The position numbers were made by a program, and so were the translations under genes. Source: Rhynchobatus australiae (taxonomy: Eukaryota). Taken from it: 64,000 nucleotides of DNA. The stretch spans positions 15,267,397-15,331,396 of the forward strand of contig JAUZTB010000069.1 in assembly GCA_034780895.1 (NCBI GenBank), read 5' to 3'. The notes under the pieces are model-generated. The model did no database searches. It was not told where the DNA came from and saw only the letters and a program-made list of their open reading frames with translations. Positions 151 to 64,000 of the stretch are shown here, one piece after another; position 1 is the first letter of the stretch, and each line of letters opens with the position of its first letter.

Positions 151-35442
<35,292 letters not shown>

Positions 35443-36378: not shown

Positions 36379-36949
36379 GTTCTCTGTTAACTCTTCCTAC
36401 TTCATATATACCAATGTGCCGAACTAAAGTTTGAGCACGATGACAATGATTTAATATGCAAGTAAAGGCAGCTTTCAGGTGACTGCATTGCTGTAACCTC
36501 CAATCTGACAGCTTGTAATATAGTTACAAAATTGTTATTTTCTTTACACTAGTTCAAAAATTATATTTGAATAACAGTTAAAATGGAGAGACAATATTGC
36601 TTCCAAGGTCCAGATGCCAGGCTGATCCGAGCTGTTATTGGGGAGGGTGGGGTAAGAAACACACTGATTATAGCCTGAGATTTCTTCATAAAAATTCCCA
36701 CTCAAAAGAAAAAGAAAATCTGACCCCTGGTTGGACTGACATTGTACGTATTAAAGAGACTGTAGTTCTGGTTACCATACAGCAGAAAGAATCCTGTACA
36801 AGCATCCTCATATGGAGTAAGGGCACTGCTGATATTAGACAGCCACAATTAACCAAGTTGTTACGCAGGTTGGAAATCATACCCATCTCATTCATTCTCA
36901 ATGACTTCTCCACCCCAGCCTCCACTGCAACTGAATTCAGAAGGTGGGC

Positions 36950-37420
36950 GTTCCGGGTTCATTGGTTTAGTTTCGGACAGGAATTCACAGCGACGTTTAA
37001 TGGGTGTCGAAATCAGAACGAACACGAAGAACTTGTGATGCCGGGTGTGGCGAAGGAGAAAGCGACCGCAAACCCTGAGCCCAGCAGCTGTCAGAACCCA
37101 GGGCTCCCGGGGGCAGGCACCGAACAAAAGACGCGCTCAGCAGATGCATCGCCGATTACTTTAAACGCAAGACATCTATCATCATAAAACAGACCCAACC
37201 TCCAGCAGTTACCTGGTCTCGCCTGCCCGCTGTAACCGCCGTCGCCCCTTTCCCTCGCCCTCCTTTATTATTTTCTTTTAACGATGCACAAGTCGCACCT
37301 CCGCCATGTTGGGAAAGCTCACACTCCGCGGTGCGCTCTGGGAATTGTAGTTCCCCCGGATGCCGAGCGGACTACAACCGACCTCAGGGCGCGAAGGGCT
37401 CTGGGAGCCGAGAAGCAAAA
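36950..37420 (-). promoter_or_regulatory. USP20 CpG-rich promoter with ZNF143/Staf-type ACTACAATTCCCAG site (37338-37352) and YY1-like AACATGGCGG (37301-37310)
   Basis: Local CpG enrichment against a CpG-poor background; motifs read directly on the minus strand. Confidence 0.75.
37213..37320 (-). other. USP20: Probable non-coding first exon of USP20 (5' end approximate)
   Basis: CAG|gtaact donor at 37213/37212 inside a CpG-rich stretch, directly downstream of promoter motifs. Confidence 0.7.
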
Positions 37421-37540
37421 TACCGCAGATGCTGGAGGCCTGAAATAAAACACAGAAAGTATTGGGCATACTCAGTAGGTCAGGCAGCATCTGCGGAGGG
37501 GGAAACGTTTCAGCTCGATGAGCCTTCATCAGAACTAAGA
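37410..37540 (-). repeat. Penelope-like terminal repeat with hammerhead-like core; family copies at ~3868-3962, 21545-21645, 25250-25390, 30540-30635, 31425-31560, 41690-41790, 47849-48047 and 50686-50830
   Basis: Shared consensus CTGATGA.AGGTCAT.GACCTGAAAC.TTAACT...CCACAGATGCTGCCTGACCTGCTGAGT. Confidence 0.65.
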
Positions 37541-38084
37541 CTAAGTGAGAAATGAGGCAGGTTTTTGGATGCAAGGAAGGGGGTGGAATGCCAAGAACAA
37601 GGTTCTGTTTTCACTTCTGGAAGGCTCCAACACTGGATGGCTTAGATATAAGTTAAGTCATTAATAAATTCCATCAGATTTTCAGAAATAAAGTTGGAAA
37701 AAAAAGGAGGACAGCTAGTTCAAATGGAATGAGTCACAAGAAAAGGTGCTGATGGTTTGGTAGAGTTCATGTACCCTGAGCAAGGTGAAGATGAGGAGCT
37801 GGAATATTAGAGAAACAGTGGTGTTAAGGATTATTGCGTGAAAAAATTCAGAAAGGTTCATGTAGACCATCTGCTGCTCGTGGATGATACCCAGGGGATT
37901 GTTGGATGGACATGAAAATGAAACCACCAATTCGACTGCTGTGGTCTATGCTCTTTCCGTTGCCCTTTTCCAGGGTCTCTGGGTTCCCTCTAAGCTACTC
38001 CCAATGCTTGCAGCCTGAGCACCCAGATTCACCTTTTGCTGCAACAGGCCTCAATTGCTCAACTAATCACATTCCTGGAGATTG

Positions 38085-40260
38085 CGGCAAAGAGCCAAGA
38101 GAAGCACTGAGAAAATGATTAGCTATTAACCCATTAAAAATCTCCACAGACATTGACTGAAAGATTTAATTATGCAGTCTACATTTTGCTTCCTTTTAAG
38201 AGTTGCAACACATTACTTCGATGTGTACAGTAGGGCAGTTATAATGCACGAAGTATGGCAAAATTGCAAAACCTGCTAAACGTATCAGTGCTTCACAATG
38301 CACAATGCATTTATTTTGTGTAACCTGTAATAAGACACCAGACCATATTCATAAGTGATGTGTTGATATTCATTTCAAATCAAATTACCATCAAAATGTC
38401 GAACACAAAGGTAATCTGATCTGACTTCAATTGTATCCATGTTTCATTGTAGGACTAAGTCCTGACACTTAATATGCGGCATATTTTGCACTTATTGAAG
38501 CTATCTCAAGCACAAACATACCAGAGGAGAAACCAGGTAACATTTATTAAGAGACCGCAATCCAAAGCAGATTCCTATCAAAAATGCTCTACTTTTCGAT
38601 GTCTAACTTTTCAGGATTACTTACCCAATGTACTTGAAGTACATTATAAGGAACCAACAAGATAAATTAAAATAAAATATGATTCTGTACCCACTGTGTT
38701 TAACAAGTGAACACATAACTATGTACATAACTATGTACTGCATGCTGATGCTGTTCCCTAAATGGGTGGGCGACAAAGTTGCAGTTATTTCTTTGAATTG
38801 TGCTATTTTTAAAATTGTGTATAATTCAACAAAGTCACAAGCTTTCATCAAATGTCTGACAAATTTTGAAACAGAATTTGCTAAGGTGTCCAGGATTGTG
38901 ACTGGCAAAGCCACTGTACTCGAGCATATAATATAGTTTTCAGGGATTATTTTGTAACTTGGTGCACTTACCATGTGTGGTAAAAGTCTGATTACCTGGC
39001 AATTTACTAAGTGCAACACAGCAGTGATTGGCACTTCAGAGGGAATGGTTAAACCAGTGCAAGGACAGTATGAAGAGAGCATTCAGGTTGGCAACCAGAT
39101 TGCACTGAACAAGGACCCAAGCCAATTAAGGATAATCCTGAAGGAGTGCTTGGAATAGAAGTCCAGACAGTGTTGAGGGACAACTTGGGCTGACATTGGG
39201 ATAGCACTTGGGGAGTGCTTGCACTCATGCTGAGGGAGTACTGGTGGAGTTCCCAGGCCATCACCTGGTTAATACGGATATTCGATTAAGCAGCACCTTT
39301 CAAGCCTGGCATGTGTTGCATGATAGAGCTTTTAGTGTAATGTGCATACTGTAAACTTGGCTATCAATCAGTAGCACATTTATTTCTCTCAACCTGACAA
39401 ATTTGCTGCTGCAGTGAAAAATGCGTAGACTGCCCAGTACCCAAGCTGTGTTTGAAAGTTTTCTTTGCAGAGAAACAACAGGTTAATCCTTATAAAGTGG
39501 TTCTGTGGCCACACCAAGTAGTGAATAGGAGGAATTTGTGGTTTGAAGCAACTCTTTACCAAACTGAACAAGTCAACACCGACTGCAAGTCCACTAATTG
39601 CGTGTTACCGCTTTGCATTTAAGTTATGGACGCATTGAACTCTCTGTAAAATGATACAAATATTCCACATGACTTTGACGTCATTGCTCTCAAAGCCAAA
39701 CAATAGATTGAAATTATCAAGTTTTTCAAGATGTGCTCTGTTTCCATTCATCAACAATGCAACACAGTAATGGATTTGACAGATGGGGCAGTAGACAATA
39801 CAAAACAAATTCACGGCAGAGAAGCAAACTAGAATGGATTTCTTCAAGGAGAGTTGGGGAAAACAACAGACTGACTTCGAGAACACTACTGAAAAAGTGA
39901 GGGAAACGTTGCAGACCAGTTCAATGAGGGCCAAAGTTCACTCAGCCAAAATTGCTATTTTTGAAGGTTGTTTGCATATTTGACCCGAAACAAAACCAAA
40001 CATCAGCGAAACAAGCACTTCCTCTGTATTTGAATCCTAACTTTGGCCACGCTGCTAAAGGAAGGCTTGCATCATACAACTTTTATTTTAACAGGTGAAT
40101 CAGTTTCCAGAATGAAAAACCTGTTTTCCTGAAGCAAAAATATTAGTAGGTATCAAATGTCTGAAAAAAACTATTACGATGATTTTCCATCTCACAAATG
40201 TTTGCAATCTTTTGAAATTTACAATAATTAACAAGAGGTAAATATTACTATTCTTCAATT
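38085..40260 (+). mobile_element. Decayed hAT-superfamily DNA transposon with CGGBP1-like transposase (copy 1)
   Basis: Ordered relic motifs across frameshifts and stops: LFCVTCNKTPDHIHK*CVDIHFKSNYH (38311-38391), STNIPEEK, DYLPNV, NSTKSQAFIKCL...VTGKAT, GLFCNLVHLPC, QPKLLFLKVVCIFDPKQ (39943-39993). A homologous copy lies at ~61 kb. Confidence 0.75.
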
Positions 40261-40329
40261 GTGTCTGCCTTGTCTGCAACTTAGCTCCAATGTTTTTTTT
40301 AGTTTGACCTGCAATTTTGTTAGGGCTTT

Positions 40330-40630
40330 CCTGAACACACAACTTACAGCCGGAGGTACCATTTTTTTCAGATAAAGCATTAAATGCTAATTCCTTCCTC
40401 GGATGAGAGAAAATATCCCGTGATACTGCTTTGACAAACAGTAGGAGGGACCGAGATTCCCAGCAATATTTATCCCTCATTCAGTAAAAAAACAGCTTAC
40501 ATGGTATTGCTGATTGTGAGACCTTGCTGTGCATCAATTGGTGCAGTGTTTTCTCCATTGCATCAGTAATTACATTTCAAAAGTATTGTCTTATTAAAAG
40601 CTTCATGTTTCCCTCAGAAAAGTGTGAAGA
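40330..40630 (+). mobile_element. Deu-domain SINE immediately upstream of the C9orf78 promoter
   Basis: CAATATTTATCCCTCA...TGTGAGACCTTGCTGTGCATCAATTGG...TACATTTCAAAAGTA. Confidence 0.6.
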
Positions 40631-40669: not shown

Positions 40670-41040
40670 CACCCAGTGTTTTGTGGGTAATGTAGTTCAG
40701 CAGCTGCCGGAAGTTCTTTGCGCAGAGCGGAAACTTGTCCGTCTGCCGGAGCTTTCCCGTTGTAAATACGCAGCGTAGCCCGGAGTAGGAAGACGAGAAG
40801 TTTGTGCCGGGTGGTCCCAATAAAACATCAACCGTGAAGAAAAGAAGAAGCTGTGAGGAATGCCAGCGGGGAAAAGTTACAGGAAGAGAAGAGAGGAGGA
40901 GTCGGACGAGGAAGATGAGCAGCGGGTGGTGGAGGTCAGGTGAGAGCCGAAGCCTGGGTCAACAGCGGCCGGGCTGGTAGCTGGACCACTGTTAACGCAC
41001 GTAGGCCCAGGTGTGGGCGGGCTCGCTGGGCACAACACAC
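40670..41040 (+). promoter_or_regulatory. C9orf78 CpG-rich promoter with ZNF143-type ACTACATTACCCACA site (minus, 40682-40697) and ETS/GABP CCGGAAGT (40707-40714)
   Basis: CpG enrichment and motifs 150-180 bp upstream of the ATG at 40860. Confidence 0.75.
40860..40939 (+). CDS. C9orf78: C9orf78 exon 1 (MPAGKSYRKRREEESDEEDEQRVVEV)
   Basis: ATG at 40860, gtgaga donor. Confidence 0.9.
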
Positions 41041-44000
41041 GGGGGATCTGTCCTATACCAAAGCTTCTAGGCACCTAAAATAGCCTTTGATTTAAATGTA
41101 GCTGCCCCTTACTTCATCCTCCATTAAAATGTCCTTCCACTTGGAAAAGGCACCTGATTTTCCTTCTAAATTTTCCTCAACGTTGATAATCCTGTCATTG
41201 TTTATTGGTTATTTAGATGTGGGAAGTATGGGGACATATTTGCTGTGTACTCATTAATATTTTGCCCCCGCCCCCGACTTCTTGTCGATTGTTTTTGTTG
41301 GGGGAAAAACACTTTGTAGTTTCTCAGCGGCACTTGCATTTATTGGTGATGCCAAACTAGATCCCTTCAAAGGAGTGGCTGAGAGTCAAGAATGCAATCA
41401 CATTTAGGCCTCATCAGTGCGACAAGTTTCTTTTACATTCGCACCTGCAGTTTTGCTTTTTCTAATGTTCACAGAAAGTGACAGGTTCGAACCAGCATCA
41501 ACACTTGTGTTAAATTAGTGTAATTTAAAAAAAAATGAAATGATGTAAATATAGATAAAGCATTTGTATTATCTTAAATTATGTCTAGCGGATGTAGGCA
41601 GGATCTTTTAAGTGTAGCAATGGTGCTCTTTTAAAAAAATAAAGCTATAGTGCCACATGGTGTAACATTGAGAAAATGAAAGCAGTCAAGAAGCATTAAC
41701 TGTCCATTTCCCTCCATGGATGCTGCCTGACCCACTGAGTTCCTCCAGCAGATTGTTGCTCCAGATTCTAAAGTCTCTTGTGTGTCATAGAACAGTACAG
41801 TACACACAGAACAGGCCCTTCAGCCCACAATGTTGTCCATAACGTTTAAAGCCTTCTGTTCCAAGCACAAGCCATAAGCTCAATTCCACATCAGTCTCCT
41901 GGAAAATGTCTGTGAATAAGTTATGCTATTTGCAAACCTGGTGTTATAAATGACCCCAGAATGAGCTTTGGACTCTGCTGCCCATGCCCTAATTTGTAGC
42001 CAATGCTGTCTGCACTTTGCTTCTATTTTTCCTGACTAGCATTGGCTCTCAGAGTCATAAAGCAACACAGTACAGATAGAACAAGTCCATACTGACCATG
42101 GTTCCCATCCAGCTAGTCCCAATTTCCTGCGTTTGGCCCATATCCCTTTAAGCCCTGCCCTAGCATGTATCTGTCTAAGTGCTTCTTAAATGCTACTATT
42201 GTACCTGCCTCAACCACTTCCACTGGTAGCTCGTTCCATATACATAAAATCTTTTTTGCACTCTTTCCAGTTTAACCACATCTTTCCTATAACAAGGTGA
42301 CCAAAACCGTACACAGTACTCTAAGTTCAGCCTCACCAATTACTGCAGCATAATGTCCCAACTCCTATACTCATTACCCTGACTGATGAAGGCCAGAATG
42401 CTAAACACTTTTTTCGCCACCGTCTACCTATGGTGCTGCTTTCAACGAACTATGCACTTGTACTCCTAGCTCCCTCCGTTGCATTACACTCCCTAGCGCC
42501 CTACCATTCATAGTATAAGTCCTATGCTGGCTTGACTTTCCAAAATGCGTGACCTCGCACTTATCTGGATTGAGATCCATTTGCCATTCCTCAGCACACC
42601 ACTAGTCACTGGCCTCCATTCCGAAGAACAAACTTCAACCACCCCCCGATGTTTCCTACCTTCGAGCCAATTTTGAATCCACCTAGCTAGCTCTCCCTGG
42701 ATTCCGTGGGACTGAACCTTCCACGCCAGCCTACCATGCAGCCCTTGTTCAAGGCTTTGCTGACGTCCAAACAGACAACATCCACTGCCCTACTCTCATG
42801 TCATCTGCCCTACTTTTGGGGTGGCAGGGTAGCATAGTAGTTAGTGCAACGCTATTACAGCGCCAATGATCGTGGTTCGATTCCCGTTGCTGTCTGTGAG
42901 GAGTTTGTACGTTCTCCCGTGTCTGCGTGGGTTTCCTCCAGGTGCTCCGGTTTCCTCCCACATTCTAAAGACTTACGGGTAGGTTAATACGGGTTTAAAT
43001 AAAAATGGGCAGTGTAGACTTGTTGGGCCGGAAGGGCCTGTTACCACACTGTAAATAAAATTTAATTTAAAAAATAATAATTTAATATTGGTTAGACCTC
43101 AGCTCAAGTACTGCATGTAGTTCTGGTCACCACACAATAGGAAGAGTATGATAGCATTACAGAGAAGAGTCGCCAGGATGAGACTAGAAAAGCTAAGTCC
43201 GTTTCCCCTGGAGCAGAGAAGGTTAAGAGGGAGAATTAACTGGGGTATATAAAATTAAGAGGGGTAAACATAGGGTAGAACTTCAGGAAACTGTTCCCCA
43301 TATCTGAGGTAGACAAAACTAGAGGATATAGATTTAGGCTGAGGCATAAGGGATTTAGAGGGGATCTGAGGGGGATCCTTTTTACCCAAAGAGTGGTGAG
43401 TATCTGGACTACAGTGCATGAGAGGGTGGTGGAAGCAGAGTTGCTGACAGCATTTAAGAAGGAACTAGATGAATACTTGAGTTGCCTAGGCATAGAAGGC
43501 TACAGGCCAACTTCTGGAAAACGGGGTTAATGCGGATGAACTCCCACTGGTCAACACGGTTTTAGTAGTCTGAATGGCACATTTTTGCGCTGTCTGGCTC
43601 TGTGACTCAATGACTCTGTGACTCTCTAAGACTTGAATTTATATTTATATAGAGGAAGGGGAAGTCGGGAGAACACACAGCAGTCCTCAGCAGTGGAAAG
43701 GATGAGCAGCTTCAAGATCCTGGGCATTAACATCTCAGACGATTTATCCTGGCCCCAACACATTGATATAATCATGAACAAGACACGCCAGCAGCTCTGC
43801 TTCAAGGACTTTGAGGAGATTTGGTATGCCACCAAAGATTCTTGCAAATTTCTACAGATGTACAGTGGAGAGCATTCTGACTGGTTGCATCACTGCCTGG
43901 TGTGGAAGCTCCAATGTGCAGGATCAAAAGAGGCTGCAGAGGGTTGCAGACTCAGNNNNNNNNNNNNNNNNNNNNNNNNNNNNNNNNNNNNNNNNNNNNN

Positions 44001-53000: not shown

Positions 53001-54976
53001 CTCTGTTCTGTATGAACTGCCTCCTGTCAGGACATGATCACCATGTAAGTTTCTTCTTAAATTAGTCAGAATGTACGTTGCTGTTTCCTCATTCTCTGAG
53101 GAGCTTACAATAGTAAGAGTAGCTTCCTGAGAGAGGGCAACAGTTCCAAAGGCAACTCTTCATCACATACTTGTGGGCAATTAGGAATGGGCAACAAATG
53201 TTTACATTGCTAACAATGTTCACATCCTATAAATGATGTCTCCAACGGGCCCACATTCTATTTTCCTACTTCCCCTCCTAGGATATATAGAACATCTATA
53301 TTGGCATTAACATCCCATTTATGTCCCTTTCTCATACCTCTCACTTTTTGTTCTCTTCATTGCTTGTTATAGCTGTACCACTTCACTGGATTTCCACTTT
53401 TGGATTTGATTTTATTTCTGCCTTATTTTTAGCATGGATGCTTAAGTAAAAAAAAGTATTTCCTCTATCTTTTAGGGTTTGTATTGTCCAAAAAGCTGTT
53501 TTAACATTTGCTTTTTTTTTTAGCNNNNNNNNNNNNCTATTTTCTTATCGTCCCTTTTCAGGTTTATTTGATCTAAATGTTAAACTTCTCCTAGGATTCT
53601 CCCTTATCCCCATCAAATCTAGTAAATTAATTATGGTCACTTAATTTATTCCACTATTGTCATATTGTTAACTAATTCAGGTTATACTGAGAATATTTGA
53701 TTTCTAATCATGCTTAGGTTGTAGCCAGATGTCTAATGATACCCACTGAGCTGTATTTGTAATATTTTGTTCTGTGCACAAAAAAAGTGTAACCCCATCT
53801 TGCCCATCTGTCCTGGGGTTTTCTCCCACATCCATTCTTGCCAATGCTCTCTGGGTTGATAAATAAGCAATTTAGTATGTTCTGAATTTTCAGACAGTTT
53901 GTGTTATTTTTGATGTTTCTTTTGTTGTTGCCTCTTCAAACCTATTCTATCCCTGGAGAATTGGTTATCTATCACTTTTTCTGTGCTGAACTTTGCTCTT
54001 TCCATTTCTTTAAACTACCATTGTAAAAAGCACAAGCCACCATCATGCAGTTTACCTGACTAAGAACTCATTGAGAGGAACACAACTAGATTCTCAGCAA
54101 TAAGGACCTGCACAAAGACAGACTTGTGCAACAAAAATGGCCACGCATTGGGGAACAGGATGCTGGTGGGGATGGAAAGATCTGCCCACAAAACAGCTGG
54201 AGAAAATTAACAACAGGGAGAGCTGTACCAATATCTTGGGTAGCTGTCAGAACTGTCAAATATGGTACGTTTCTGACACAAACATTGAAAAACGAGACTG
54301 TTCAAACTATTAAATTAACATTTAATGTTTTAAATTGTCTCCTCCATTGAAAACAATGGAAAAAAGCTTCCTACACTAGGTCTAACTTGATGGGTTGTTC
54401 AAGCAAATTCTCCACCACAAATGGCAAATAGGCATTGCTGCAATGCTCACCAGAATCTGAGTTCTCCAACACTGGAGAGTTGGGGAAAACAACCAAAAAC
54501 TACTGACATTGCATGAATGTATGCTGACATTTCCCAGCAAAAAATTGACCCATTATTTACACCCAGATCTTCTCCTTCGATGGTTTAAATCCCTTTTTGA
54601 AATGTATCCTCTTGTACTGCATCCTACTGGCTATTATAGTAAGTACTTTTTGGTGTATATTAAAATGCAAATGGGTTAAGCCAACATGAAATTTTTTGAT
54701 TCTTTTGAGTTTTTTCCCCACATTAAATAGCATGAGTACTTGAAAGTACATCACTCAAAAGCTGATGTTTACATGTTTGATCTTCTTCAAGAGTAACTAT
54801 GGGTCAACTGTATTGACATTTTTAAATTCTGGATTTTGTGTTAAGACAACAAAGCTATTAAAAATATTGCTTTTGCATATGCAGAATCTCCTCCAAATCG
54901 CAAACGTCCTTCAAATGAAAAGGCAACTGATGACTACCATTACGAAAAGTTCAAGAAAATGAGCAGAAGATACTGA
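40860..54976 (+). CDS. C9orf78: Splicing factor C9orf78 (TLS1 homologue), complete spliced CDS, 9 exons, 289 aa
   Basis: Exons of 80+60+52+71+81+198+137+99+92 = 870 nt with all phases consistent. Motifs include DDPFKLKTGG, FSVETNRRDEDADMMKYIETEL, AKIKNIISTEEAK, FVPTNIAVNYVQHNR and EKATDDYHYEKFKK. Confidence 0.95.
42050..42815 (-). mobile_element. CR1 LINE ORF2 fragment
   Basis: Reverse strand gives DVSKALNK..HGRL.WK, W...WQM..NPDKCEV.HFG, E.R.LGVQVH..LK, LV..NLEYCVRFWSP. Confidence 0.82.
42820..43065 (+). mobile_element. V-type SINE, same head as the copy at 1999
   Basis: AACGCTATTACAG...GGTTCGATTCCC, V-domain, AATAAA tail. Confidence 0.8.
43085..43628 (+). mobile_element. CR1 LINE 3' fragment
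   Basis: LVRPQLKYCM.FWSP, PLEQRRLRG, FFTQRVV.IW relics; (CTCTGTGA)n tail. Confidence 0.8.
43650..43955 (+). mobile_element. Rex1/Babar-type LINE ORF fragment
   Basis: VERMSSFKILGINISDDLSW..H and LRRFGMPPKILANFYRCTVESILTGCITAWCG...KRLQRV. Confidence 0.8.
44551..44610 (+). CDS. C9orf78: C9orf78 exon 2 (SKLDELKEIQSLRKRQNGV)
   Basis: tag acceptor, gtaggt donor, 60 nt. Confidence 0.92.
46024..46075 (+). CDS. C9orf78: C9orf78 exon 3 (AAALLVGEQVPEETSNV)
   Basis: cag acceptor, gtaagt donor, 52 nt. Confidence 0.92.
46911..46981 (+). CDS. C9orf78: C9orf78 exon 4 (DDPFKLKTGGMIDMKIIKDRKRE)
   Basis: cag acceptor, gtgggt donor, 71 nt. Confidence 0.93.
47710..47790 (+). CDS. C9orf78: C9orf78 exon 5 (IEEEDTDLNLGTSFSVETNRRDEDAD)
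   Basis: cag acceptor, gtatgt donor, 81 nt. Confidence 0.94.
49037..49234 (+). CDS. C9orf78: C9orf78 exon 6 (MKYIETELKRRKG...EEMLSNQML..), contains a 13-N gap
   Basis: tag acceptor, gtaagt donor, 198 nt, frame kept; bases after the gap look unreliable. Confidence 0.88.
50436..50572 (+). CDS. C9orf78: C9orf78 exon 7 (AKIKNIISTEEAKAQLL...FVPTNIAVNYVQHNR)
   Basis: aag acceptor after a T-run, gtaagt donor, 137 nt. Confidence 0.93.
52438..52536 (+). CDS. C9orf78: C9orf78 exon 8 (YREELHAPAKRNKEEAKPRPLRVGDTDKPEPE)
   Basis: tag acceptor, gtaagt donor, 99 nt. Confidence 0.93.
54885..54976 (+). CDS. C9orf78: C9orf78 exon 9 coding part (SPPNRKRPSNEKATDDYHYEKFKKMSRRY*)
   Basis: cag acceptor, TGA at 54974-54976. 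Confidence 0.94.
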
Positions 54977-55899: not shown

Positions 55900-56760
55900 T
55901 GTCCAAATAACCCAAGAGTTTGTTAGTATTGGAAAGGGAAAGACAATTGATATGTACTTCCAAAATGCTTTTGATAAAGTGCCAAATAATAGGCTTACCA
56001 TCAGAATCAGGTTTATTATCACTGACATATGTCATGAAATTTGTTTTGTGGCAGCAGTACAGTGCAAGACATAAAGATTACTATGTTATGAAAATTAATA
56101 AATAGTGCAAAGTTTCAAGTTTGAAAGCTGTGAAATGAAATGGCCTGTAGTAGGATGGATAGAAAATTGGCTAAGAGGTGGAAATAGTAGTGATGGGTTG
56201 TTTTTTGAAATGGAGGGAAGTTTACTGTGAAATTCCCCAGGAGTTGGTATGCTGACATCTAAAGTCATTAATGATTTGAAATTGGGTATACATAGCATAA
56301 TCTCCAAATTTGCAGAGGACAAAATCTAGAGGCATAGTGAGGGGCATAGATTAGGTGAATGAACAGTCNNNNNNNNNNNNNNNNNNNNNNNNNNNNNNNN
56401 NNNNNNNNNNNNNNNNNNNNNNNNNNNNNNNNNNNNNNNNNNNNNNNNNNNNNNNNNNNNNNNNNNNNCTTCCCCCAGGGAAGGGAATCAAAAACTAGAG
56501 GGCATAGATTTAAGGTAAGGGGGAAAGATTTAAAAGGGACTGGAGGGACAACTTCATGCAGAGGGTGGTGCATATTATGGAATGAGCTGCCAGAGAAACT
56601 GGTTGAGGCAGGTACAATAACAACATTTAAAAGACACTTGGACAAATATATGGCTGGGAAAAGTTTAGAGGGAAAATGGACCCAGCTCAGATGGGCATCT
56701 TGTTTGGCGTGGACGTTGGGCTGAATGGCCTGTTTCCATGCTGTATTAATCTGATTATGA
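55900..56760 (+). mobile_element. CR1 LINE fragments, with a Rex/Babar-like 3' tail inserted on the minus strand at ~55998-56105
   Basis: YFQNAFDKVP, GWIENWL, ISKFAED, ESKTRGHRFKVRG, WNELPE.LVEAGTITTFKRHLDKY. Confidence 0.78.
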
Positions 56761-60544: not shown

Positions 60545-60812
60545 TTCAGGAAAGAGATGAGGAGGAATTTCTTTAGCCAGTTGGTGGTGAATCTGTGGAA
60601 TTCGTTGCCATAGATGGTGGCGGAGGCCAAGTCATTGGGTATATTTAACGTGGAGGTTGATAGGTTCTTGGTTAGTAAGGGTGCCAAAACGTTACGGGGA
60701 GAAGGCAGGAGAATGGGGTTGAGAGGGAAAAAATAAGTCAGCCATGATCGAATGGCAGAGCAGACGCAATGGGCTGAATGCCCTAATTCTGTTCCTATGC
60801 ATTATGGTCTTT
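60545..60812 (+). mobile_element. Comparatively intact CR1 3' end
   Basis: RRNFFSQ.VVNLWNSLP...GIF..EVDRFL..KG; tail GGGCTGAATGCCCTAATTCTGTTCCTATG. Confidence 0.85.
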
Positions 60813-60844: not shown

Positions 60845-62270
60845 CTAAGGACACCAAAGGTTCTGCATTGAAAATAAAACATGTGTTATTGAGTTAAAAT
60901 ACTCTACAGACAATTTGAATCAATGAATTATTTAATTAGAATTACAGTCAAGAATTTTGATTCTACTTTTAGACCTCCGACCCATAATAGGTTAATTATT
61001 GGACAGTGCAGTTATAGTACATGAAGTGCCATAAAATGGCAATAGCTGCTAAATGTTGGTGCTTTAGATCACACAAGGCAACATGCTGAAGAAGGAAAAT
61101 TCTTGTCGAATTGTAATTAAAGATCTTATCTTACTCAAGTTGTGCATTGATGTTCACATAAAATCAGATTATCTGTGATGTCACAAGATGTCAGGTGCAA
61201 AACTGAATCAATATGACATCAGAAGCAAAATGTCAAACAACAATTGCATCCAATCTTCATTGCAACACTCAAGAGTTAAAATGTGGTTTGAAGTTGCTAA
61301 TTATTCAAGTGTCACAAATTTTCATCAAATAACTGAAAAACTTTGAAAAATAATATGACAGGGTCTGGCATATCAGCATAAATTTAAGTTTTAAGGGGGA
61401 GGCTGCATTATAATTTGTAACAGATGCTGTCCAGCAATCAGTGGAGTGTTCATATCTCTCAGGTTTTCTTTACAAAGAAGAGATCAATCCTGATGAAGTG
61501 ATTCTTACAGCACAACTATTAGTGACAAGACGGAATTTGAAGTTTAAAGCAATTCTTTACCACACAGTAGTCATTGACATGCTCAATGTTTTCAATGAGG
61601 GTAGGAAATCTCACCTACACATAAGTAGTGGTCACACCTTTAAATGATGCAAATCTGCCAAAAGGCAGGAAATTCATACCACAATGGCAAACCATTGATG
61701 GAAACAGTCAAGTCTTTGAAATATGGTCTGTTTCCATTCACCAACCATAAAGCACAGTGAAGGATTTCACACACTGGGGAGAAGACAAGTGCAAAATAAA
61801 CATACAGTGAAGATGCAGACCAGATGTATTTTTAAGGAGAGTTCAGGGAAACAGCAGACAGACCTCAAGAGTACCATTGCAACAGTGAGAGAGATGCAAG
61901 ACTACCTCACAAAGTGCCATCATTTACGAAGGCAGTTTGAGTATTTTTATATGAAGCAAAAGCAAACACAAGCAGAACACACACTCTTTTTGAAACTAAT
62001 CCCTAACACTGGTCCTGATACAACTTTGCCCTTGCAATTTTGTTGCAAATGAATATGAAATTCATGATTGAAGAAGTTCTGATATTCACCCTAACTTGTA
62101 TAGGAATTTGCAGAGTTTTAAGCTGGGCTCTCTTCAGAGGTGAATATGCTTTTGTCTTTTCAAATGACTATTGTCAATAAGCTGAATCATTTTATCTCGA
62201 TTTGCTACAAAAATGTTTAGTTATCAAAAATATTAGGAAGTTATAAACATTTATATAAAATTCATTTTTT
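60845..62270 (+). mobile_element. Decayed, internally deleted copy 2 of the same CGGBP1-like hAT element
   Basis: Nucleotide blocks alignable by eye to 38085-40000; relic peptides HAEEGKFLSNCN, CIDVHIKSDY and TRRNLKFKAILYHT. Confidence 0.72.
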
Positions 62271-63877
62271 AAAAAAAACATAGCTTAAGCCAGTTTTCTC
62301 CAATAATTAACATGCCTGGTGACTTTAATAAGTTATTGCCATTAATAGAAATAAATATATTCAGCAATTTTGTCTGTTTTGTCCACAAATTAGCCACTTA
62401 AAAAACTTAATTCTACAATATAGNNNNNNNNNNNNNNNNNNNNNNNNNNNNNNNNNNNNNNNNNNNNNNNNNNNNNNNNNNNNNNNNNNNNNNNNNNNNN
62501 NNNNNNNNNNNNNNNNNNNNNNNNNNNNNNNNNNNNNNNNNNNNNNNNNNNNNNNNNNNNNNNNNNNNNNNNNNNNNNNNNNNNNNNNNNNNNNNNNNNN
62601 NNNNNNNNNNNATTTGCCTCCCAACTGCCAGTGTCATTCCAAGTTTAAAACCACAATTATTATTAAATTTAACTTCTGCATTAAAACTTTTAAATAGAAA
62701 AAAAACTTCATTAGCTTTATTATAAAACCAACAACTCTGATCTTAAATCCTTTATTTCTGAAGTGAGATTTGAACCCACAACCTTTTAACTTAGCAGTGT
62801 GACAAATTATGCCACAGATATACATTATTTATATACATTACTTATGAAATACAAATAGACTTTCCTGTGGGTTTGTGGAATGATGTCCAATCTGTTGCAT
62901 TAAAATTGATTGAAGTTTTGCCACCCCGCAATCATTTTAGATACAAATTCCACTGGAAATGCAATTCACAAAAATGTCCAATTAAAAACAATCTGGGGAA
63001 AAAAAACATGTATTTTCACATGTTGAAATTTAATTTTTTAAAACAAAACTTCTGTTTACAGTGGAAAAAGTTTAGTTTAAAAATAAATCACACTTTTCAA
63101 GTTTTACTAAATAACACTTTATAATGAGCTAGTCACACAACTGGACACGACAATATGGCAACAAGATTATTCAGGTATCAGCAGGAAATATGTTGTATTA
63201 CAAAAGTAACTGCTCAAATACGCACACGATTTGCCTTTTTTGTGTATAATTAACTGGCCTTAGTAAAAAGAAAACAATGGAATTTTTATACAATTTATAT
63301 GATCTGACCTATAAAAAATGCTGACACAAAAGCATCACTGAATGTAAAGGCAAAACTGAGAAATTCAGTAATCAAAAGGCTCATGTACTCAACCATGTTT
63401 GCTTCTAAGGTAGAAAAGCTGAGTACCTTGTGCATGGAAGTCATTAGTTCATTGCAAAAAGAAATTAACCTCTCTTGCTGTAATTTCTTTAAGTGGGATG
63501 GTGGGAATGAAACTCGAACACAATACATCATTGATTTCAAAGCAAGGTACTTGCATCAAGGGTATTTACTCAAGATTTTAAATTTCATCATAAAGCTGTA
63601 TTTTTCAAAGAACTGCAGCCCCATCACTGATACTTTGCAATCATTTTCAACAAATTACTTCACCATTATTTGCATGTAAACTAAGTGTGATATTCGATTT
63701 GCAAATAGCAGTTTAAAATCACCACATGAACAACTGTGACACATTGGGAGAGATTCAAATCCCCAGGAAAACAGATTTTCAAATCCATCAACTGCTGAAA
63801 ACAATGCCCTCTTCAATATTTTTTTTAAAAAGTGTCCTGTGTTGAAAAAAATATTTAATTAAAAAAACATACACATT

Positions 63878-64000
63878 CTACAAGTAAAAGTCCACCTTGG
63901 TGGCCACAGTTTTGCAGCCTTTGTGTGAATAGATCTTTTCATTCTCAGGAAAGTATGTCATTTCATCAGCTACACTGATAATGATGTCCTCATCCTCCTG
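63878..64000 (-). CDS. Torsin-1 family AAA+ ATPase, C-terminal 40 aa of last exon ([40 protein letters not shown]); gene continues past the right edge
   Basis: Matches the torsin-1 C-terminus pattern DEDI..VA.EMT.FP..E...S.KGCKTV, including the GCK sensor-2 motif (63911-63919); syntenic with C9orf78. TOR1A versus TOR1B cannot be assigned. Confidence 0.9.

Follow-up and report, generated by a model that had tools for sequence, protein, structure and literature searches.

The stretch analyzed here (the window) comprises 64,000 nucleotides (nt) of Rhynchobatus australiae DNA (GCA_034780895.1, contig JAUZTB010000069.1, positions 15,267,397 to 15,331,396, forward strand); all positions below are those of the window. 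At 38104–40285, between the promoters of USP20 and C9orf78, the plus strand carries a decayed transposase region (copy 1), which an initial annotation had described as a near full-length, dead CGGBP-type hAT transposase. Its placement was borne out: both genes were confirmed, each with its own CpG-rich promoter region. A second copy of the same family, a probable third fragment and a 362-nt insertion within copy 1 had been overlooked in that first reading. Copy 1 is best explained as a dead, dispersed, ordinary hAT transposon fossil in an elasmobranch genome, with no lost host gene behind it (probability about 85%).

Copy 1 was translated in six frames over 37900–40500 and the previously quoted pieces were rechecked on the plus strand, where every one of them was recovered in place. 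The following parts were distinguished:

38104..40285, plus strand: copy 1, body of a decayed hAT-type transposon, delimited as the span common to copy 2
38311..38391, plus strand: relic of a BED-type zinc finger, L-x-C-x2-C-x14-H-x5-H, with one internal stop (translation, pattern scan)
38497..38638, plus strand: relic of a presumed Hermes-type DNA-binding and dimerisation domain, its NIP.EK and YLP pieces in different frames (translation)
38696..38915, plus strand: relic of an RNase H-like core (translation, spacing of Asp sites)
38944..38976, plus strand: GLFCNLVHLPC segment, ending at the Cys of the CxxH motif (translation)
38977..39338, no strand assigned: 362-nt foreign insertion splitting the CxxH motif (GC and junction analysis)
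39336..39580, plus strand: resumed transposase with C-x-x-H, a frameshift and the conserved Trp site (translation)
39943..39993, plus strand: QP...FDP segment QPKLLFLKVVCIFDPKQ of the insertion domain (translation)
40116..40265, plus strand: C-terminal relic and end of the reading region (by eye, from a hAT motif)

In copy 1, ~140 nt on the 5' side precede a broken transposase reading region, which spans ~548 codons with the 362-nt insertion and a 12-nt duplication discounted, and a short 3' tail follows. It is near full-length and dead, each recognisable catalytic position being substituted or split. Across 38240–40270 the three plus-strand frames that carry transposase pieces contained 29, 35 and 45 stops, and the longest ATG-started open reading frame (ORF) in copy 1 had 85 codons and did not cover the finger. 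An intact hidden ORF was rejected on that length, and the ORF at 38958–39155 was rejected as part of the transposase because it lies mostly inside the 362-nt insertion.

In the finger, Leu stands at 38311, the two Cys at 38317 and 38326 and the two His at 38371 and 38389. Alignment with copy 2 placed a deletion of ~12 nt just upstream of it, and copy 2 retains about four pre-finger codons that copy 1 lacks; these codons agree with the CGGBP pattern, a partly independent check. The label Hermes-type for 38497–38638, a stretch missing from copy 2, was taken from CGGBP1 motifs and from PMC8097297. In CGGBP domains the Hermes-type part has two conserved prolines, and here prolines occur in the NIP (38515) and YLP (DYLP, 38615–38626) pieces; further pieces were placed at 38540 (TFIKR), at 38696–38743 (VFNK*T and HNYVLH) and up to 38915 (end of TGKAT).

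Sites of the DDE core were assigned by eye. The first Asp site (38702) reads AAC/Asn and the second (38904) GGC/Gly, and between them lies a 12-nt tandem duplication (38713–38736), without which they are 63 codons apart. Provided that the 362-nt insertion is discounted, the C-x-x-H at 39336–39347 (His at 39345) follows 26 codons past the second Asp site; hAT transposases have this motif some 20–30 residues beyond that Asp. At the conserved Trp site (39530), 62 codons past the CxxH His, copies 1 and 2 alike have Arg (codons AGG and CGG, a single base away from TGG), and the catalytic Glu site is probably near 40174, reading Leu and followed by R*FS. In Kat1, D310 and D377 are 67 apart and the second Asp is 28 from the CxxH His, and in Hermes H268 is 51 from W319 (PMC4763223); the values here were 63 and 26 codons and, from His to Trp, 62. 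Copy 1 resembles Hermes and Kat1 in the order and approximate spacing of its candidate Asp, Asp, CxxH, Trp and Glu sites, which fits a hAT transposase, and differs from them in that all catalytic sites are substituted or split and no sequence match to PDB chains was obtained. The literal motifs of the hAT catalytic core claimed earlier are not in the sequence, with Asn and Gly at the Asp sites.

The 362-nt insertion had a GC content of 0.47 (against 0.35–0.38), TGT at both junctions and TAAAAG/CTTTTA near its ends; no second copy of it was found in the window. The true ends of copy 1, that is, terminal inverted repeats (TIR) and a target site duplication (TSD), were not recognisable. Of six end-versus-end comparisons for TIR none exceeded chance (45–157 of 200 shuffles equalled the score), the ends being decayed and one of them adjoining an N gap. 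A scan for 8-bp TSD gave one exact 8-mer pair at copy 1 (0.39 expected by chance) and none at copy 2. The ratio of observed to expected CpG (o/e) was 0.11–0.60 in the element and 0.68–1.13 in the two promoter regions.

More than one copy of the element is present; a second copy and a likely third piece were located:

60865..62394, plus strand: copy 2, same family, internally deleted (blastn self-search, best E=2e-26; local alignment)
54303..54493, plus strand: probable third fragment, lying within the final intron of C9orf78 (exact 20-mer shared with 39848–39867)

Local alignment of 38104–40285 with 60865–62394 scored 388, against maxima of 47.75 in 30 shuffles and 54 in 34 control comparisons. 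The two copies share strand and, within alignment resolution, start and end points, and lie 22.8 kb apart. Their homology starts ~140 nt ahead of the coding region and ceases some tens of nt beyond it; the wider flanks were without homology, their scores being equalled by 12 of 100 and 52 of 100 shuffles. With large blocks of its interior missing, copy 2 is less complete than copy 1, and it occupies a promoter-free gap flanked by the 3' ends of C9orf78 and TOR1. It independently retains residues lost from copy 1. Its right end meets an N gap at 62424 (N run 62424–62611; there are 19 N runs in the window, 2462 bases in all). The third fragment, aligned with copy 1, scored 56 (equalled by 0 of 200 shuffles; nhmmer E=0.023), and with copy 2 only 30 (9 of 200); it probably belongs to the same family.

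Just left of copy 2, at 60550–60810, lies what by eye is the 3' end of a CR1/L2-like long interspersed element (LINE), with similar pieces at 43279–43530 and 56469–56720. The piece at 60550–60810 may have displaced the 5' end of copy 2.

Copies 1 and 2 differ at 25.7% of compared sites (Kimura two-parameter distance 0.32; 10 gap-free blocks covering 499 of 1228 aligned sites). Mismatches by codon position were 37/167, 40/168 and 51/164 (22, 24 and 31%; chi-square p=0.14), and third positions against first and second together gave p=0.063, in what is a copy-to-copy, paralogue comparison only. These values suggest a divergence close to neutral.

Motif patterns were scanned in six frames of the window and of 1000 locally shuffled windows. 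The exact finger pattern L-x-C-x2-C-x14-H-x5-H had a single occurrence in the window and was present in 22 of the 1000 shuffles; the general BED pattern (C-x2-C...H-x3-5-H) was frequent, with 8 occurrences in the window and presence in 965 shuffles. The chains BED>NIP>YLP and BED>YLP>HxC>FDP were each found once in the window and in none of the shuffles, while BED>YLP alone appeared in 31. Such ordered chains support the identity of the element and do not prove it.

On motif order and spacing copy 1 is very probably a hAT element. Assignment to the hAT19/CGGBP subgroup, which draws on CGGBP1 motifs, is likely rather than proven because no database search confirmed the family. Pfam returned nothing relevant for six read-through frames (best E=0.24, unrelated) or for 44 stop-free pieces of both copies (best E=0.019, unrelated). 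One whole plus-strand frame searched by phmmer against 1.84 billion representatives gave 0 matches at E<=1e-3; word-seeded searches with 38676–38933 and with the two-copy alignment yielded no relative among 18 and 12 candidates, respectively. PDB sequence searches reached a best E of 0.47 (unrelated), and Atlas feature searches on two stop-free pieces gave no usable match. A single-sequence AlphaFold2 model of 38757–38933 (two helices; predicted local distance difference test score 60.5, predicted template modelling score 0.34) was uninformative. Being short or for the most part out of frame, the queries had low power, and Pfam fails to detect CGGBP1 (PMC8097297), so a blank in Pfam is expected of a CGGBP-type protein; for both reasons the blank searches weigh little against a distant hAT19 kinship.

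As a control, a 92-residue variable USP20 exon gave 66 matches among 265 candidates, including named shark and chimaera USP20 (82–91% identity along the entire query) and amniote USP20 with identities as low as ~49%. Two stop-free pieces of the element, of ~50 in-frame residues each, found no intact relative in the protein set that holds these shark and chimaera proteomes. Against a close intact orthologue these blanks carry more weight; an intact gene missing from the annotation would go unnoticed. Literature searches turned up no paper that, by its title or the start of its abstract, deals with hAT19 or CGGBP in sharks, and current Repbase or Dfam libraries may already include the family.

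CGGBPs are characterized by a Leu two positions ahead of the finger and by both Cys and both His (PMC8097297), and the copy 1 finger has the Leu, the Cys pair and the His pair. The CGGBP domain forms the N-terminus of the hAT19 group, and in the same source the CGGBP1 model recognises 13 of 16 hAT-19 families. Elements of the hAT19 group (hAT-13_LCh, hAT-19_Crp and hAT-39_LCh, named in PMC8097297 and PMC9004415) share with copy 1 a single transposase region made up of an N-terminal BED finger, a Hermes-type domain and then a DDE core with CxxH; the span common to copies 1 and 2 is ~2.2 kb, and the Repbase models are drawn on axes of 2–2.5 kb (PMC8097297 supplement). Dispersed decayed copies are a further likeness, whereas the element here is wholly dead and its ends are unrecognisable. 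The hAT19 protein fossils described in PMC9004415 are likewise frameshifted, stop-laden relics in non-coding DNA and are known in human, vertebrate genomes contain hundreds of thousands of transposase fossils, and 105,995 transposable element protein fossils of all kinds are given for a chimaera. The fossils highlighted in that source are short and some are anciently conserved, whereas copy 1 is near full length and shows no conservation evidence. Elements of the hAT superfamily are also reported from the whale shark genome (PMC8455134).

CGGBP1 and the non-amniote CGGBP host genes have the same finger followed by NIP and YLP, in that order. These host genes are expressed and intact, most of them truncated (<200 aa) or with introns (PMC8097297); copy 1 differs in having no ATG-started ORF above 85 codons, in carrying the whole catalytic region as debris and in being multi-copy. 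At best, the element would be a cousin of the transposon ancestor of the CGGBPs, not a CGGBP gene. Of the earlier claim of a near full-length, dead CGGBP-type hAT, motif order, active-site spacing and copy 2 uphold the general picture, and the subgroup lacks a significant profile or database match.

The surrounding genes were placed by tBLASTn with best named hit (USP20), Pfam and exon motifs; in the Pfam scan for gene context 3 of 85 pieces matched, one of them unrelated. Two promoter features frame the element:

37213..37400, minus strand: USP20 promoter and non-coding first exon (exon boundary by eye, the first exon ending near 37213)
40684..40940, plus strand: C9orf78 promoter, with the first coding exon starting at 40861 (gene identified through an exon further downstream)

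USP20 lies on the minus strand with its coding start at 35442, in the second exon, and its first exon (37213–37330) starts within a CpG-rich region (36900–37500, o/e 0.79–1.13). C9orf78, a plus-strand gene, extends from 40861 to ~54970 (Pfam Hep_59, E=7e-7; exon motifs), with a CpG-rich region at 40700–41100 (o/e 0.68–1.00). The minus strand carries the last exon of TOR1 (torsin-1) at 63881–64000 (Pfam TOR1A_C, E=7e-18). The promoters of USP20 and C9orf78 are arranged head to head 3.3 kb apart, with ~1.1 kb of non-element sequence also between them; in mammals the pair presumably shares a compact promoter, far closer than that. ZNF143/Staf-like sites lie on the same strand at 37339–37351 (USP20) and 40684–40696 (C9orf78, one mismatch), but single one-mismatch sites of this kind are weak evidence because the pattern had 5 matches in the window against 1.17 expected. 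The gene order USP20-C9orf78-TOR1 is described as kept in coelacanth and tetrapods (PMC3460957), and it extends to this cartilaginous fish. An acceptor-like AG behind a pyrimidine tract was seen at 38199, ahead of the coding start of copy 1; it came with the element, since copy 2 carries the same site. A spliced gene using this acceptor was rejected, all three frames stopping within 25 codons.

Several points weigh against reading copy 1 as an ordinary dispersed hAT fossil. Copy number was established within one 64-kb window. The codon test used frames set by eye and only 10 gap-free blocks, and its slight third-position excess leaves room for some selection. No TIR or TSD is visible. The motifs were picked after the sequence had been viewed, so that the shuffle figures overstate significance, and none of Pfam, the PDB, the protein sets of 1.84 billion and 5.8 billion sequences and the Atlas gave a significant hAT or CGGBP match. 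These last two points favor a real repeat of another hAT subgroup, or of another DDE superfamily with CxxH, whose CGGBP likeness was over-read; CxxH is common to several transposase superfamilies (PMC4763223). Such a misassignment is nonetheless unlikely, given that the Leu and the Cys and His pairs match the CGGBP description and that a Pfam blank is expected where CGGBP1 itself escapes Pfam (PMC8097297). Copy 2, moreover, supplies pre-finger codons as the CGGBP pattern predicts. The invisible TIR and TSD, the shared strand and the distance of only 22.8 kb would also suit an origin of copy 2 by local segmental duplication instead of transposition, but this is improbable: homology gives out close to the coding region on either side and is missing from the wider flanks, as in the footprint of an element, and the third fragment sits in an intron. 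The flank comparison is partial, the right flank of copy 2 being under an N gap and its left flank being the LINE-like 3' end (by eye).

A history in which copy 1 served as a domesticated CGGBP-like gene (in full or as its DNA-binding part), driven by divergent output of the USP20 promoter, spliced at 38199, lost here and kept in relatives, is highly improbable. The element is indeed oriented away from the USP20 promoter, ~0.7 kb upstream, as had been pointed out in proposing drive from it, but copy 2 has no promoter nearby and shows that insertion needs no promoter context; a common repeat at 37414–37535 also sits between that promoter and the element. Copy 1 is fuller than copy 2, a pyrimidine-tract AG precedes its coding start and third-position mismatches are slightly higher, yet the AG is present in copy 2 as well. 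Independent non-syntenic CGGBP domestications are common (62 in coelacanth; PMC8097297). Domesticated CGGBPs keep the DNA-binding part; in copy 1 that part is equally broken, with a stop in the finger, a deletion before it and a frameshift between NIP and YLP. The family is multi-copy within 64 kb, though one member could still have been domesticated, and the annotated proteins searched, among which the shark and chimaera control was positive, yielded no intact relative. Of the two alternatives left by the initial annotation, the plain transposon fossil agrees with copy 2, the third fragment, near-neutral divergence and CpG depletion, and the once-domesticated gene is not supported in view of an equally old, co-terminal copy 2, an intronic third fragment and the lack of an intact annotated shark relative. 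More decayed copies and no intact orthologue, which that annotation had itself named as speaking against domestication, are what the window and the protein databases contained. Exaptation of the fossil as non-coding regulatory DNA, or the splitting of a shared bidirectional promoter into two by its insertion, is very unlikely too. The site lies between two CpG-rich promoters, each with a same-strand ZNF143-like site, C9orf78-USP20 adjacency is described as conserved from mammals to coelacanth (PMC3460957), and hAT19 fragments have been exapted as non-coding DNA elsewhere (PMC9004415). The element, however, is CpG-depleted and tolerated the 362-nt insertion and deletions, the ~1.1 kb of other sequence also separates the promoters, and the ZNF143-like sites are weak. 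Its position between the promoters most plausibly reflects an insertion that was tolerated.

In hAT elements the BED finger and the Hermes-type domain bind the element ends, and the DDE core excises and reinserts the element. Taken as an ordinary hAT fossil, copy 1 would descend from an autonomous transposon of the cut-and-paste type, in all likelihood a hAT19 element, formerly active in the elasmobranch lineage, whose transposase would have acted on its ends by this established mechanism. At least two near-complete copies would have inserted within 23 kb, as local hopping or high copy number gives, and we infer that the family spread through transposition, not local duplication. Copy 1 would have entered the 3.3-kb gap between USP20 and C9orf78 and copy 2 a promoter-free gap, after which both would have decayed independently, without selection on the protein: copy 1 by losing its catalytic residues and gaining stops, frameshifts, the 12-nt duplication and the 362-nt insertion, and copy 2 by losing large internal blocks. 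Copy 1 now makes no protein and most likely does nothing.

As a transposon fossil copy 1 matters little, and its modest value is taxonomic. If the hAT19 assignment is true, the group would extend to elasmobranchs; the hAT-19 species table of PMC8097297, built on a 2018 library, lists no cartilaginous fish. It would gain weight if other sharks had an intact ORF in the same interval: the birth and death of a CGGBP-type gene could then be dated, and the locus would exemplify how a transposon uncouples a bidirectional promoter. At very long odds, copy 1 could represent an elasmobranch-specific CGGBP-type domestication or non-coding exaptation in which a hAT19 element split the USP20/C9orf78 promoter, intact, under selection and unannotated in related sharks or rays; if true, no CGGBP-type gene would have been reported from cartilaginous fishes before it.

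The short interspersed repeat at 37414–37535 lies directly upstream of the USP20 promoter and has at least 6 other copies in the window. Its minus strand forms a long hairpin (z=-4.8) with CUGAUGA...GAAA. Rfam gave 0 matches in the window at gathering score, with two chance-level matches around the locus (E 2.4 and 4.9), and none for this repeat, whose minus strand resembles a minimal hammerhead ribozyme of Penelope-like elements. Hammerhead-type motifs in Penelope-like elements are described in PMC6155905.

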